Shown one piece after another: positions 15,254-51,072 of a stretch of 64,000 nucleotides of DNA. Origin of the DNA: Pseudomonadota bacterium (GTDB taxonomy: Bacteria > Pseudomonadota > Gammaproteobacteria > JAKBBU01); the NCBI GenBank assembly GCA_021808365.1, contig JAKBBU010000003.1, forward strand, positions 4,685-68,684, written 5' to 3'. Position numbers and translations under genes: made by a program. The notes under the pieces are model-generated. The model saw only the letters and a list, made by a program, of their open reading frames with translations, was not told where the DNA came from and did no database searches. How positions within the stretch are numbered: position 1 is the first letter of the stretch; each line of letters starts with the position of its first letter.

Positions 15254-15322
15254 CTTAAGGGGGAGAATCGCGTCTCCCCCTTAAGAATCTCCCATCGCGT
15301 AATGTTCAGCGGGTGCCGCTGA
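15254..15322. repeat. Family-B composite hairpin element (GGGGGAGAATCGCG..TCTCCCCC + GAATCYCCCATCGCGTAA + second hairpin CAGCGGG..CCGCTG) between rpoH and suhB
   Basis: Near-identical to 23139..23209. The 3' end runs into the suhB SD (gctgaagagg). Confidence 0.8.
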
Positions 15323-15334
15323 AGAGGATTATTA

Positions 15335-16138
15335 ATGCTTCCCTTCCTTCATCTTGCGGTGAAAGCCGCGCGTCGTGCTGGTGATATTATTCTTCGTGGT
15401 GTAGATACCCTTGAAACCGTCCAAGTTTTTACAAAAGGTCGTAATGATTTTGTAACAGAAATTGATCGCCGAGCGGAAACTGAGATCATCGCGATTATTC
15501 GCGAATTTTATCCCGAGCATACGATCTTGGGAGAAGAGGGTGGTCGCCAGGAGGGGCATGAAAATAATGAGTGTGTTTGGATCATCGATCCTCTTGATGG
15601 CACGAATAATTTTATCCATGGATTACCTCATTTTGCAGTGTCGATCGCGGTTGAAGTCAAAGGTCGTTTGGAAGCAGGTGTTATTTATGATCCTGTTCGC
15701 CAAGAATTATTTACAGCTTTACGAGGTTCTGGTTCGAAACTCAATGATCGTCGGCTTCGGGTCAGCACAAAAACAAAATTGAGTGAGGCTTTTTTAGCAA
15801 CAGGTTTTCCTTATCGACAAGATCAATCATTAGAAGCCTATATGGAAGGGTTTGCGCGCATTTTACCGTTGACGACGGGCGTACGCCGTGCGGGTTCAGC
15901 GGCTCTCGATTTAGCATATACAGCCGCTGGTCGTTTTGATGGTTTTTGGGAAATGGGTTTGAAATCCTGGGACATGGCCGCTGGCATCTTGTTAATCCAA
16001 GAAGCAGGCGGATTAGTCGGCGATTTTCAAGGCGGACATGATTACTATAAGACGGGCAATATTGTCGGTGGAAATCCTAAGATTTTTAAAGCGTTAGTTC
16101 AGACCTTGCATCAATCTGCAGTGTCTCAATTAAGCTAG
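15335..16138 (+). CDS. suhB: Inositol monophosphatase family protein
   Basis: WIIDPLDGTNNFIHG motif, 267 aa. Confidence 0.85.
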   Translation: MLPFLHLAVKAARRAGDIILRGVDTLETVQVFTKGRNDFVTEIDRRAETEIIAIIREFYPEHTILGEEGGRQEGHENNECVWIIDPLDGTNNFIHGLPHFAVSIAVEVKGRLEAGVIYDPVRQELFTALRGSGSKLNDRRLRVSTKTKLSEAFLATGFPYRQDQSLEAYMEGFARILPLTTGVRRAGSAALDLAYTAAGRFDGFWEMGLKSWDMAAGILLIQEAGGLVGDFQGGHDYYKTGNIVGGNPKIFKALVQTLHQSAVSQLS

Positions 16139-16481
16139 AAGAATTGTTTAATTTTAGGGTAGGTATGTTCCTTATCAGCTCTAATATTGGTTGCTCTTGT
16201 TCTTTCTCAAGCTTTTTTGTTATGCTTGCTAATCCTCTTTCAAGAGCAGCTATTAGTTTTTCCTTATCTAGTTTTTCGTTGAGTTCAGCTGAAAAAACGG
16301 CATTCGTAATTGTAGGCGAACGAAAAAAAGGTAAGTACATTGGGCCGCATTGGAGTAAAGAAAAGCGGACAAAATTTTGGGAATTCTCATCTAAATCTAT
16401 GAAAGGTGTGGTTATTAGTGTTGAGAGTTCTTCTAAATTACTTGGAATTTCTCTAAGTCCAAGAAAATTTACTGTGATCAT
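16086..16481 (-). CDS. Hypothetical small protein (uncertain; its 3' end overlaps suhB convergently by 53 bp)
   Basis: Its composition is more protein-like than the alternative Ser/Cys-rich plus-strand ORF 16144..16578. No homology recognised. Confidence 0.25.
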   Translation of the reverse strand: MITVNFLGLREIPSNLEELSTLITTPFIDLDENSQNFVRFSLLQCGPMYLPFFRSPTITNAVFSAELNEKLDKEKLIAALERGLASITKKLEKEQEQPILELIRNIPTLKLNNSSSLIETLQIDARSELTL

Positions 16482-16574
16482 GTCAGGATCCTCTAATTTT
16501 CAAAACCATAGTTTTACCGATCTGTTGATAGGAAAGCAAGAAGAATCACTTTTTTTTCGTACGTCGAGCGGTTG

Positions 16575-47934: not shown

Positions 47935-49398
47935 ATGAAATATGCGGATCTGCGGGATTTTATTGACCTGCTTGAAAAACGCCAATTACTCAAGCAAATA
48001 GATATTCCCGTCGATCCCTATCTTCAAGTCACAGAAATTGCTCATCGAACGCTTCTTCAAGAAGGTCCGGCTTTACTTTTTACAAAGCCGAAGGGTTCAT
48101 CTATTCCATTATTATGTAATTTATTTGGCACCACCGAACGTGTTGCGCTTGGCATGGGTGAAGAACAAGTTTGTGCACTACGCGATGTTGGAAAATTACT
48201 CGCCTTCCTCAAAGAACCTGAACCACCGCGCGGCATGCGTGATGCCTGGCAAAAATTACCTATTTTCAAACAAATTCTGGACATGGCACCCAAGGAAGTG
48301 CGTCATGGGCCTTGCCAAGAGATTGTTTGGGAAGGTGATGCTGTTGATCTTTACAAATTCCCGTTGCAAACCTGTTGGCCCGATGATGCAGGTCCTTTAA
48401 TTACTTGGGGATTAGTGACCACGCGCGGGCCTGATAAACCTCGACAAAACTTAGGTATTTATCGTCAGCAAGTCGTCGCGCGCAATAAAGTCATTATGCG
48501 TTGGCTCGCGCATCGCGGGGGCGCGCTTGATTTTCGGGATTGGCAATTAGTGTATCCTGGGAAACCATTTCCAGTGTCCGTGGTTTTAGGTTGCGATCCT
48601 GCAACTATTTTAGCGGCTGTAACACCGATCCCTGATACATTGGCTGAATATGCCTTTGCAGGATTATTGCGAGGATGCCGAACGGAATTAGTACGTTGCC
48701 TTGGAAATGATCTCTTAGTGCCTGCGCGTGCTGAAATTATTTTAGAAGGATTTATTGAGCCTGGTGAATTTGCACCTGAAGGTCCGTTTGGCGATCACAC
48801 TGGTTATTACAATGAAGTGGAACATTTTCCAGTCTTCACGATTGATCGGATCACGATGCGTAAAGATCCCATTTATCACAGCACGTATACAGGGCGTCCT
48901 CCAGATGAGCCGGCCATTTTAGGTGTTGCACTCAATGAAGTATTTATTCCCTTGCTGCAAAAACAATTCCCAGAAATTGTCGATTTTTATTTGCCGCCGG
49001 AGGGGTGTTCCTATCGGTTTGCGATTGTGACGATTCGTAAACAATATTTAGGTCATGCGAAGCGTGTGATGTTGGGCGTATGGTCGTTCTTGCGTCAATT
49101 CATGTACACGAAATTTGTAGTTGTCACAGATGAAGATATTAATCCGCGTTCTTGGCCTGATGTGATCTGGGCGATCACGACGCGTATGGATCCGGCTCGC
49201 GATACGGTGCTGATTGAAAATACGCCGATCGACAGTCTTGATTTTGCCTCACCGACAGCAGGATTGGGATCAAAAATTGGATTTGATGCGACCACGAAAT
49301 GGCCTGGTGAAACGAATCGCGAGTGGGGCCGACCAATTACGATGTGCTCGGATGTTATTCGAGAAGTCGATGAGTTGTGGGATTCGCTGGGGATCTAA
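47935..49398 (+). CDS. ubiD: 3-octaprenyl-4-hydroxybenzoate carboxy-lyase
   Basis: [15 protein letters not shown].. collinear with E. coli UbiD. Confidence 0.9.
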
Positions 49399-49401
49399 AA
49401 C

Positions 49402-50742
49402 ATGCAACCCATAAAACCTGGTAAGAGAATCATTGCTCTCGCCCTCCCTATGGCAGGCAGTCAATTTGTCAGTGTGGCGAGCGGCTTTTTATGTATGGCT
49501 ATGCTAGCCGCATTAGGTCACGATGTCCTTGCCGCAAGCGCGCTTATTTTTTCGACACAATTGTCGATCATAGTGAGCGGCATGTCTATTTTATTTTCCC
49601 TGAGTGTTTTAGTCGGCCATGCTCATGGTGCAGAAGATCATCTGGCCGTTGGCAATTATTTACAACAAAGTTGGACATTATCACTCCTCATCAGTATTCC
49701 CATTATGTTTCTCTTTTGGCATATTGATGCCGTATTAATTTTCTTTGGTCAATCTAAAGAAATGGCGAGCATTGTACACGCCTATTTTCACGCTTATGTA
49801 TGGACTGTGCTTCCCTGGTTTTTAACCACCTGCAATATGCAATTTGGTTACGGGATCCATAAAAAAGCGCTTATTGTCACAACAAGTGCGCTCAGTGTCA
49901 TTGTACTGCTCATCGCAGCATATACCTTGATTTTTGGAAAATTCGGCATGCCCAAATTAGGCGTTGCTGGGCTTGGCTATGCAAGCTGTATTCAATCTAG
50001 CTTTTTCTTTATCGTGACCACGCTTTTTTTCTATCATGACAAAAGCTTTACACGATTTGAATTATTTCGTTATCGCGTCCATCAGAATTTGAGCTATTTT
50101 GCAAAAATGTTTAAATTAGGCTGGCCCATTTGCGTACAAATGAGCGGGGAAATGTTCTCGTTTTTTGTCAGCGGTATTATGATCGGGTGGATAGGAACGA
50201 CCGCGTTGGCTGCCTTTCAGATCATCAATCAGTATTATATGTTAATCGTTATTCCTATCTTTTCGCTTTCACAAGCCAGCGGCATATTAGTAGGGCATGC
50301 CTGCGGCGCTGAGCAATTTTCTGACGTGAAAAAATTAGCCTATGCCAGCATTAAAATCGTTCTTGTAGCCAGTTCTATCGTTGCGCTTATATTTTTATTC
50401 TTTCCTAAAAGCTTAGCGGCATTTTATATGAGCGTGAATGATCCTGCCAATGCAGCAACACTGCACTTAACGATTTTACTCTTCATCATTATTGCGTTTT
50501 CTCAGATGTTTGATGCTGTGCGGAATGTGTTAATCGGGATATTACGGGGATTGTTTGATACCCATTTTGCGATGTATACGAGTTTGTTAACCATCTGGAT
50601 CATTGGAATGCCCTTGAGCTATCTTTTGGCTTTCCCGCTTCATTTAGGCGCCGTGGGGTTTGTCATTGGCGGCATGTTGGGGATGCTGGGCGGTGTGACC
50701 ATTTTGGCTTGTCGATGGATGGTGTTGAGTCGGAGGTATTGA
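49402..50742 (+). CDS. MATE-family efflux transporter
   Basis: 12 TMS with MATE-like repeats. Confidence 0.7.
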   Translation: MQPIKPGKRIIALALPMAGSQFVSVASGFLCMAMLAALGHDVLAASALIFSTQLSIIVSGMSILFSLSVLVGHAHGAEDHLAVGNYLQQSWTLSLLISIPIMFLFWHIDAVLIFFGQSKEMASIVHAYFHAYVWTVLPWFLTTCNMQFGYGIHKKALIVTTSALSVIVLLIAAYTLIFGKFGMPKLGVAGLGYASCIQSSFFFIVTTLFFYHDKSFTRFELFRYRVHQNLSYFAKMFKLGWPICVQMSGEMFSFFVSGIMIGWIGTTALAAFQIINQYYMLIVIPIFSLSQASGILVGHACGAEQFSDVKKLAYASIKIVLVASSIVALIFLFFPKSLAAFYMSVNDPANAATLHLTILLFIIIAFSQMFDAVRNVLIGILRGLFDTHFAMYTSLLTIWIIGMPLSYLLAFPLHLGAVGFVIGGMLGMLGGVTILACRWMVLSRRY

Positions 50743-51016
50743 GGATGAATATACCCGAAGCGAATGAGTTTTCGGGTATATCATCCTCGAGATTGTAACG
50801 ACTACTAATTCGTTGACAGTTTTGATTAGCCCGAGATGGCTGCATCAACGAGATCCACCATAGTTTTGCCCATCAAAATGCCATCCCCCAGAAATTTTTA
50901 AACAACCAAGCGTAAGCACTTGACAGGCGGGAAGTATCCGAACTAGAATCGCGCCTCCCCTGTTTAAGAAGGGCTTGAGTGTTACTGCTCAGCTCCGATT
51001 GAAATTGGACGAAAGC

Positions 51017-51072
51017 TTATCGCGATGGGGGATTATTAAGGGGGAGAAACGCGAGTTCTCCCCCTTAATTGC
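51017..51072. repeat. GGGGGAGAA..TTCTCCCCC hairpin element (family B), inverted copy, upstream of rpsL
   Basis: cgcgatgggggattattaagggggagaaacgcgagttctcccccttaa. Other copies at 15254..15322 and 23139..23209. Confidence 0.75.

Follow-up and report, generated by a model that had tools for sequence, protein, structure and literature searches.

A widespread repeat family of uncultured Legionellales-like Gammaproteobacteria, very probably non-autonomous DNA transposons, with a copy inside the glyQ reading frame

The repeats reported here find their closest described counterpart in QMITE2 of Coxiella burnetii, a family of 150-190 bp with inverted ends and unique 7-11-nt direct repeats, which occurs both at full size and truncated and is defined by a repetitive extragenic palindrome (REP) of the GTAG kind at its tip, the target of IS1111 (Wachter et al. 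2018, PMC5896051). QMITE2 overlaps annotated genes at their C-terminal ends only, by a few bp (PMC5896051). Other palindromic repeats enter genes: tRNA-synthetase genes are among the targets of intragenic REPs, the Rickettsia palindromic elements (RPEs) are CGTC-tagged, and the repeat CGTC-1 has been equated with Neisseria dRS3 and R. conorii RPE-6 (Di Nocera et al. 2013, PMC3733652). Here we describe short hairpin repeats in a 64-kb stretch of contig JAKBBU010000003.1 from a gammaproteobacterial genome (the window, whose coordinates are used throughout), where they lie between rpoH and suhB (copy 1), in the 5′ end of the glyQ open reading frame (ORF; copy 2) and in the leader of rpsL (copy 3). 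We consider it very probable that they belong to a family of non-autonomous DNA transposons (MITEs, or miniature inverted-repeat transposable elements) that is widespread in uncultured Legionellales/Coxiellaceae/Berkiellales-like Gammaproteobacteria, with the glyQ copy most likely translated in frame. A literature search returned no MITE described in Legionellales apart from the QMITEs, and did not find the sequence of the present element in print.

The window contains three matches to the hairpin pattern GGGGGAGAA(N0-4)CGCG(N0-4)TCTCCCCC, at 15259-15280, 23144-23167 and 51040-51064, against none in 100 dinucleotide-preserving shuffles of the window. The flank TCCCCCATCGCG adjoins every one of them, at 15288 (+ strand, one mismatch), 23175 (+) and 51021 (-). 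An earlier note on this DNA had claimed three hairpin copies with a conserved flank, of which the third is inverted, and the pattern and the strand of the flank bear this out. The note also gave copies 1 and 2 as about 90% identical over 70 bp, and over its coordinates we count 62/71 identical positions (87%). The extents that it assigned to the units (56-71 bp) are too short, the real units measuring 110, ~78 and 132 bp, and its second hairpin, although indeed repeated in copies 1 and 2, is really one terminal inverted repeat of the element. An nhmmer profile made from 84 copies, all from genomes other than that of the window, matches the window at copies 1, 2 and 3 alone (E values of 1.5e-25, 3.4e-24 and 2.1e-21, respectively), which is a density of 3 copies per 64 kb.

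A collection with one genome per species was scanned for the hairpin pattern, which yielded at least 115 matching stretches, and the loci around the matches were taken as 115 blocks of up to 8 kb each. The copies were oriented by the box CGCGATGGGGG (n = 103), which is not part of the scan pattern, and we call orientation A the one in which the box is 5′ of the hairpin. Box and hairpin were found together in at least 24 lineages of metagenome-assembled genomes (MAGs) besides the window, with the box 15-20 nt before the hairpin. Among the matches listed, nearly all source MAGs are labelled Gammaproteobacteria, Legionellales, Legionellaceae, Coxiellaceae, Coxiella sp. or Candidatus Berkiellales, and several single MAGs hold 8-16 copies each. 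A blastn search with copy 1 gave no match among 72,556 plasmids, those of Coxiella included, and a scan of viral contigs for the hairpin found none.

The elements are 78-205 bp long and carry no transposase gene. In orientation A they are composed of a left end, the box TTACGCGATGGGGGAT, a stem extension, a hairpin with a G5/C5 stem, a second structure that we name hairpin C, an ATAAAC tail and a right end. The conserved core covers about 85 nt and consists of the box CGCGATGGGGGAT, the 13-15-bp G5/C5 hairpin and hairpin C, which covaries. The stem extension also covaries among lineages (TTAA/TTAA, TCAA/TTGA, CCAAA/TTTGG and CCTAA/TTAGG), and hairpin C, built of an outer helix of 3-5 bp, an internal loop (AA/GCA) and an inner helix of 7-8 bp, keeps a single common architecture in 65 distinct sequences. 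The fold z-scores lie between -4.2 and -6.5. Some copies have the same ends around a diverged central loop.

Two kinds of end frame this one core. Type 1 has the terminal inverted repeats CAGCGRTTCCCGC...GCGGGAAYKGCTG, also written CAGCGATTCCCGC...GCGGGAATGGCTG, and 9-bp target-site duplications, while type 2 has the repeats GTAACYATTCAGC...GCTGAATAGTTAC and 8-bp duplications. Among the 22 type-1 copies with both ends recognised, the duplication is perfect (9/9) in 11 and matches at 8/9 positions in 3 more, and its sequence varies from copy to copy, as in the MGYH01 MAG (CACAGCCCA, GCCGCCGGT, TGAAGCCAG, AACCTGTAT and TGAATAATT). The type-2 copies at loci L053, L102, L094 and L082 have 8/8 duplications, with the sequences AATTGTAT, CATTTTTA, AGAAATTT and ATATCACC. 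In the window the duplication is 9/9 for copy 1, 6/8 for copy 3 and at best 6/9 for copy 2; copy 3 has both type-2 ends, whereas copies 1 and 2 have the left type-1 end only. The combination of inverted ends, duplications of fixed length, small size, absence of a gene and many dispersed copies is that which defines MITEs, and the numerous copies with target-site duplications indicate a dispersed mobile family instead of the local duplication that the earlier note had weighed.

The duplications suggest that the ends are bound by a transposase provided in trans, which would insert the element at staggered cuts. We presume that the 8-bp duplications and GTAA ends fit the IS66 family, and that the 9-bp duplications and CAG ends may fit ISAs1 or IS4. 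One locus (L044, 2677-2707) contains a minimal 31-bp element made of two type-1 ends only (CAGCGATTCCCGCTTTTAGCGGGAACTGCTG), with the perfect 9-bp duplication ACAAAATGG on both sides, which shows that the end hairpin alone suffices for insertion. Less regular arrangements were also seen. Two tandem cores lie 105 bp apart at a contig end (L073, 7843-7972), and one core (L076, near 4796) is bounded by 30-nt direct repeats (ATACGAAAGGTAATCAGCAATCATGAGTTT) and not by a 9-bp duplication. Two copies in the VFKI01 MAG (L043, ~4960-5082; L008, ~1290-1406) have an extra hairpin-rich insert of ~80 nt between box and central hairpin, probably another small element nested in the MITE.

The family resembles QMITE2 in several respects. 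The host groups are related, with Coxiellaceae-labelled MAGs among the carriers of the present family, the sizes are similar (150-190 bp against 110-205 bp, or in another tally 144-205 bp, here), and so are the direct repeats (7-11 nt against 8-9 here). Both have terminal inverted repeats, occur in full and truncated forms, lie at or overlap gene ends, and have very stable predicted folds. In contrast, the GTAG tag at the tip of QMITE2 has no counterpart at the present central hairpin, the peptide of the C. burnetii GTAG-3 REP (PMC3733652) is unlike any frame of this hairpin, and internal in-frame insertion, which we observe in nuoG, dprA and probably glyQ (see below), is not described for QMITE2. 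By these features QMITE2 is the closest described system, but they do not make the present family a member of it.

Copy 1 is a 110-bp short-form element on the - strand (orientation A; 15212-15321), with limits given by the perfect 9-bp duplication AAGAGGATT at 15203-15211 and 15322-15330. From left to right it comprises hairpin C at 15230-15248 (GCAAAAGC AAA GCTTTTGC), the central hairpin at 15254-15285 (core 15259-15280 with a CTTAA/TTAAG stem extension), the box CGCGATGGGAGA at 15288-15299 (-) and the type-1 terminal repeat CAGCGGGTGCCGCTG at 15307-15321, the same end that abuts the duplications directly in the MGYH copies. Its RNA fold has an energy of -42.6/-43.1 kcal/mol (z = -5.0/-5.5). 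The left AAGAGGATT encodes the last rpoH codons (K-E-D), followed by a TGA stop that the element completes with its first two bases, so that the rpoH ORF ends at 15213. The right AAGAGGATT is the Shine-Dalgarno sequence of suhB (ATG at 15335), and its duplex with the anti-Shine-Dalgarno of 16S rRNA has an energy of -5.8 kcal/mol at a spacing of 6.

In-silico removal of copy 1 together with one repeat restores ...GCG CTT AAA GAG GAT TAT TAATG..., a junction in which rpoH would have ended in ...LKEDY-TAA, overlapping the ATG of suhB, and the suhB Shine-Dalgarno would have lain inside rpoH. As the sequence shows, the insertion split this overlapping stop and start (TAATG), giving rpoH a new TGA and duplicating the ribosome-binding site of suhB. 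At present rpoH ends in ...LKED plus TGA, suhB still has a copy of its Shine-Dalgarno, and the two genes are 121 nt apart, with three hairpins in the gap; we infer that translational coupling between rpoH and suhB was lost through the insertion. The adjacency of rpoH and suhB (window 14362-16138) differs from the order in the nearest SuhB relatives (70% identity; L121 and L122), where suhB is divergent from a SpoU/TrmJ methylase gene. With trmJ-suhB in place of rpoH-suhB, these homologues could not serve as a source of the empty junction, and a 384-aa SuhB match (P0158) was set aside because of an internal duplication of ~120 residues, probably an assembly artefact.

Copy 3 is a full-length element of 132 bp (50981-51112, +) with type-2 ends (GTTACTGCTCAGC ... 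TTGAATAGTAAC), which match those of the VFKI and CANCKG copies. It contains the box CGCGATGGGGGA at 51021-51032 (+), the central hairpin at 51036-51068 (core 51040-51064 with a TTAA/TTAA extension) and hairpin C at 51070-51099 (+; TGC GA GCCGAGGC TTT GCCTTGGC GAA GCA), whose inner stem is perfect on the + strand only, via a G-U pair, and the whole folds with -56.5 kcal/mol (z = -6.5). The 8-bp flanks GCTTGAGT (50973-50980) and GCCGGAGT (51113-51120) are identical at 6/8 positions and are read as a decayed target-site duplication; the right one holds the rpsL Shine-Dalgarno GGAG (-6.1 kcal/mol, spacing 5). Upstream lies a sigma-70-like promoter, TTGACA-18-TAGAAT (50920-50949, +), with 11/12 matches to the consensus. 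Copy 3 is located between this promoter and the rpsL Shine-Dalgarno, immediately upstream of the latter, and so it should belong to the transcribed leader. Two of the three insertions in the window thus duplicate or abut a downstream Shine-Dalgarno (AAGAGGATT at suhB, GCCGGAGT at rpsL). The other duplications of the family show no general preference for purine-rich sites, and coincidence or survivorship may explain the pattern in the window.

In these features the family is also comparable to the Correia/NEMIS elements of Neisseria and to ERIC, Nezha and MITEAba12, which are likewise non-coding, 100-200 bp long, and have inverted ends and target duplications. Such MITEs often lie between a promoter and its gene or between co-transcribed genes, form stable transcribed hairpins and can alter the expression of their neighbours. 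However, Correia elements duplicate TA and have IHF sites and promoters in their ends, while the present family is most conserved internally, in box and hairpin, and places one core on two kinds of end with different duplication lengths.

Copy 2 is a ~78-bp element in the 5′ end of the glyQ ORF (~23131-23208, -; nhmmer alignment 23217-23132), whose right boundary may be off by a few bases. Of the family's parts it has the left type-1 end (CAGCGGTTCCCGCTG, given on the - strand; 23194-23208), the box (CGCGATGGGGGA; 23175-23186, -) and the central hairpin (23139-23172; core 23144-23167 with a CTCAA/TTGAG extension), while hairpin C and the tail are missing, since the profile alignment stops at 23132. 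It lies between the glyQ start signals and the conserved GlyQ core. The long glyQ ORF (22223-23227, -) begins with a GTG at 23225-23227, where the earlier note had read an ATG. This GTG is the start chosen by the gene callers (P0001) and the most likely one; it gives a product of 334 aa that includes a 29-residue insert encoded by the element, and the Pfam GlyQ domain begins at residue 38. Its Shine-Dalgarno, AAGAGG (23233-23238, -), comes shortly after the stop codon of def (23247-23245).

To compare the candidate starts, we calculated the pairing of their upstream sequences with the 16S anti-Shine-Dalgarno. The value for GTG 23227, -5.8 kcal/mol at a spacing of 4-5, is like those of suhB (-5.8) and rpsL (-6.1). 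The in-frame ATG within the box (23182-23180), which would give MGDSQ, has no Shine-Dalgarno (+0.4 kcal/mol), and the TTG at 23143-23141, which would give MSTNKQPL, reaches -2.7 kcal/mol at a spacing of 16 and is itself inside the 15-bp stem of the hairpin. A start at this TTG, which the earlier note had named as the alternative to an in-frame insertion, therefore lacks a usable Shine-Dalgarno.

A sister lineage from another sample (protein P0122, locus L119) has the same insertion at the same junction, with the same Shine-Dalgarno and GTG and an equal pairing energy and spacing (-5.8 kcal/mol, 4-5). The glyQ cores of the two differ by 87 synonymous and 11 nonsynonymous changes among 290 codons, and the number of synonymous differences indicates that the insertion is old. 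The L119 insert retains hairpin C (...PLSTSKSSAFAQYTNKQL LTFQ), and the window copy derives from such an insert through the loss of 30 nt between two TACAA repeats. Conversely, the central hairpin of L119 is decayed, with a loss of 3 nt that lies upstream of the TTG and is in frame, so that both indels (30 nt and 3 nt) are multiples of three. In both lineages frame 0 of the insert is open and frames 1 and 2 have stops, and AAGAGG-N5-GTG is kept although the def-glyQ spacer has changed. The encoded residues vary freely between the lineages (P/S, Y/C, GGESRFS/GEEARY), which suggests that the frame is preserved and the peptide is not. The in-frame copy proposed in the earlier note is thus supported, and we think it probable, on these comparisons of sequence, that GlyQ is translated from GTG 23227 through the element, with 29 additional residues before the catalytic domain.

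The strongest competing explanation accepts the element as a MITE but makes it, at glyQ, only a 5′ untranslated region, with GlyQ starting at TTG 23143 or ATG 23182 and the upstream open frame incidental. The 11-residue N-terminus obtained from the TTG has a length typical for GlyQ, as 4-20 residues precede TFQ in homologues, several frames of the element are open in any case, the free divergence of the peptide between lineages agrees with a peptide that is not under selection, and a start at the internal ATG would account for both in-frame indels. We nevertheless regard this explanation as rather unlikely, because the TTG, enclosed in a 15-bp G+C stem, is not preceded by a Shine-Dalgarno within usable distance, the ATG is without any, the 3-nt deletion upstream of the TTG is still in frame, and the GTG with its Shine-Dalgarno has outlasted the changes in the def-glyQ spacer.

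Translation through the element at glyQ would not be an isolated case, as copies elsewhere are in-frame inserts. A 153-bp copy (L114) lies in nuoG between the Molybdopterin (209-576) and Molydop_binding (679-738) domains, and another (L029) in dprA between DNA_processg_A (80-281) and DprA_WH (350-404); one ORF spans each insert, and copies at L077 and L113 are similar in appearance. Type-1 elements have 3-4 of the 6 frames free of stops, compared with about 1 in shuffles, and the lengths of element plus duplication (153+9 and 144+9) are multiples of three. In-frame insertion would be tolerated owing to the several stop-free frames and the common size, which with the duplication is divisible by three. 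A copy in purH of the CAVPCA01 MAG (L037, 3154-3260; upstream ...LRYGENPHQQAALYHF...) seems to shift the frame, with one base missing after the hairpin, and is either a pseudogene or a long-read homopolymer error. The likeness to Rickettsia RPEs that the earlier note had proposed holds by behaviour: in both cases small palindromic repeats occur in frame in protein genes, essential ones included, and add a peptide, which stop-free frames permit. The two differ in that the hosts of RPEs belong to another class, Alphaproteobacteria, and in the clear terminal inverted repeats, the 8-9-bp duplications and the mostly intergenic copies of the present family.

Several observations weigh against a MITE family with a translated glyQ copy. 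In the 115 blocks we found no end pair enclosing a transposase-sized segment and no multi-copy ORF. Copy 1 is without the usual right terminal repeat despite its perfect duplication, and copy 2 has no convincing duplication and a tail that may be element-derived. The in-frame indels at glyQ are equally expected with a start at the internal ATG 23182, and the 30-nt one also if TTG 23143 is the start. Since most copies have 4-6 open frames across the hairpin region, an open frame alone is weak evidence. In a profile search of 5.8 billion proteins, the element peptide matched only short hypothetical ORFs, 34 in number, and no long protein. Searches among GlyQ and SuhB homologues found no empty site from close relatives for any of the three copies, and a scan of JGI metagenomes for a clade-specific 13-residue glyQ motif, made to find such a site, gave none.

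Other routes to the ancestral glyQ were tried and abandoned. Besides L119, the nearest GlyQ homologues are ~80% identical and were unhelpful as a guide to the state before insertion, and the candidate relative P0121/L120 proved to be a different organism with a different gene upstream. A reconstructed N-terminus, MSNKKPLTFQ, based on a supposed duplication AAAAACCAC/AGCAACCGC (6/9), was downgraded because the profile aligns this stretch equally well to the element tail. Nor is the nucleotide conservation of the glyQ copy unusual, as its local identity of 0.93-0.96 corresponds to the upper end of the range in the neighbouring coding sequence (0.78-0.96).

We also considered that the ~85-nt core (box CGCGATGGGGGAT, G5/C5 hairpin and hairpin C) might have a function of its own, perhaps as a site bound by a protein or targeted by a recombinase or as a structured RNA, and that two unrelated transposition systems might have taken it up. 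Two points fit poorly with a core that is selfish filler, namely the two kinds of end with differing duplication lengths and the occurrence of a related box and hairpin in another phylum, but we consider this proposal improbable. If it were true, either the module itself would be under selection or it would have spread between phyla. Repeats in Actinomycetota of high G+C content, in the Thermoleophilia MAG JAWKJY01 (L063, 275-301; L112, 7410-7436; L078, 4600-4626; L091, 6874-6900) and a Gaiellaceae MAG (L055, 814-840), have the box GCGCGATGAGGGGG 4-6 nt 5′ of the hairpin GGGGGAGAAGCGCGAGCTTCTCCCCC. They have ~100 nt of common sequence upstream, and the hairpin is at the element end, often just past the stop codon of a convergent gene.

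It is very unlikely that hairpin and box are conserved for a function at these genes as an RNA, whether cis-regulatory (a leader, attenuator or terminator) or a small RNA. The strong folding, with z down to -6.5, and the covariation of hairpin C would suit such an RNA, as would the hairpin C of copy 3 that is perfect on the rpsL sense strand only, the position of two copies immediately before ribosome-binding sites, and the similar box and hairpin in Actinomycetota. However, copies between co-directional ORFs show no bias in orientation (22 in the same and 16 in the opposite direction), others lie between convergent (9) or divergent (10) genes or inside long open frames (11), the adjoining genes are unrelated, and the duplications mark insertion events. 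In addition, the sense strands have no U-tract terminator, and Rfam at the gathering threshold recognised only two tRNAs in the window and no family for the element, the best scores at permissive thresholds being 17-19 bits, compared with thresholds of at least 40.

Least credible of all is an origin of the repeats as REP-type palindromes that a REP-associated tyrosine (RAYT) transposase of the IS200/IS605-like, single-strand type has spread, or as passive host palindromes, and not as cut-and-paste MITEs: they are indeed made of palindromes and no transposase was found nearby in the blocks, but many copies have exact direct duplications of 8 or 9 bp right at their ends, the units measure 78-205 bp and not 20-40 bp, no copy has a GTAG or CGTC tag beside the central hairpin, and the same blocks contain no RAYT-like recurrent ORF. 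To our knowledge, HUH/RAYT transposition yields no direct target duplications, and it is these duplications together with the unit size that exclude REP/RAYT systems. The 8-bp stem of the type-1 end hairpin, which starts with AT (ATTCCCGC/GCGGGAAT) like the stem described for CGTC-1, equals back-translated C. burnetii CGTC-1 peptides (VIPACAGMT; PMC3733652), a point in favour of such palindromes. The tag is CAGC/AGCC here instead of CGTC, though, and the loop has 5-8 nt instead of 4; moreover, the two halves of the hairpin serve as terminal repeats in a larger unit that has 9-bp duplications, whereas neither a transposase nor duplications are known for CGTC REPs. The resemblance concerns a short stem, and we regard it as a lead.

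Two further genes of the window are noted for the genomic context. A 1247-aa ORF rich in Asn and Lys (23941-27684) has 31% G+C compared with ~42% elsewhere, and a gene at 12582-14219, upstream of rpoH, encodes a protein of 545 aa that has a eukaryote-type protein kinase domain. The two resemble effector-type genes, as of a Legionellales-like organism associated with a host.

With these findings the mobile DNA of uncultured, host-associated Legionellales-like bacteria, which has been little studied, gains a MITE family of well-defined limits, where only the QMITEs of C. burnetii had been described. For annotation, they imply that short 'hypothetical proteins' are called on the elements and that start-codon calls nearby need care. 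In the window the family affects core genes, with a new stop codon for rpoH, the loss of the rpoH-suhB overlap, a structured insert of 132 nt in the rpsL leader and, most likely, an N-terminal insert of 29 residues in the essential GlyQ. Taken with the nuoG and dprA inserts in related MAGs, this extends the phenomenon known from Rickettsia RPEs to another lineage of intracellular type.

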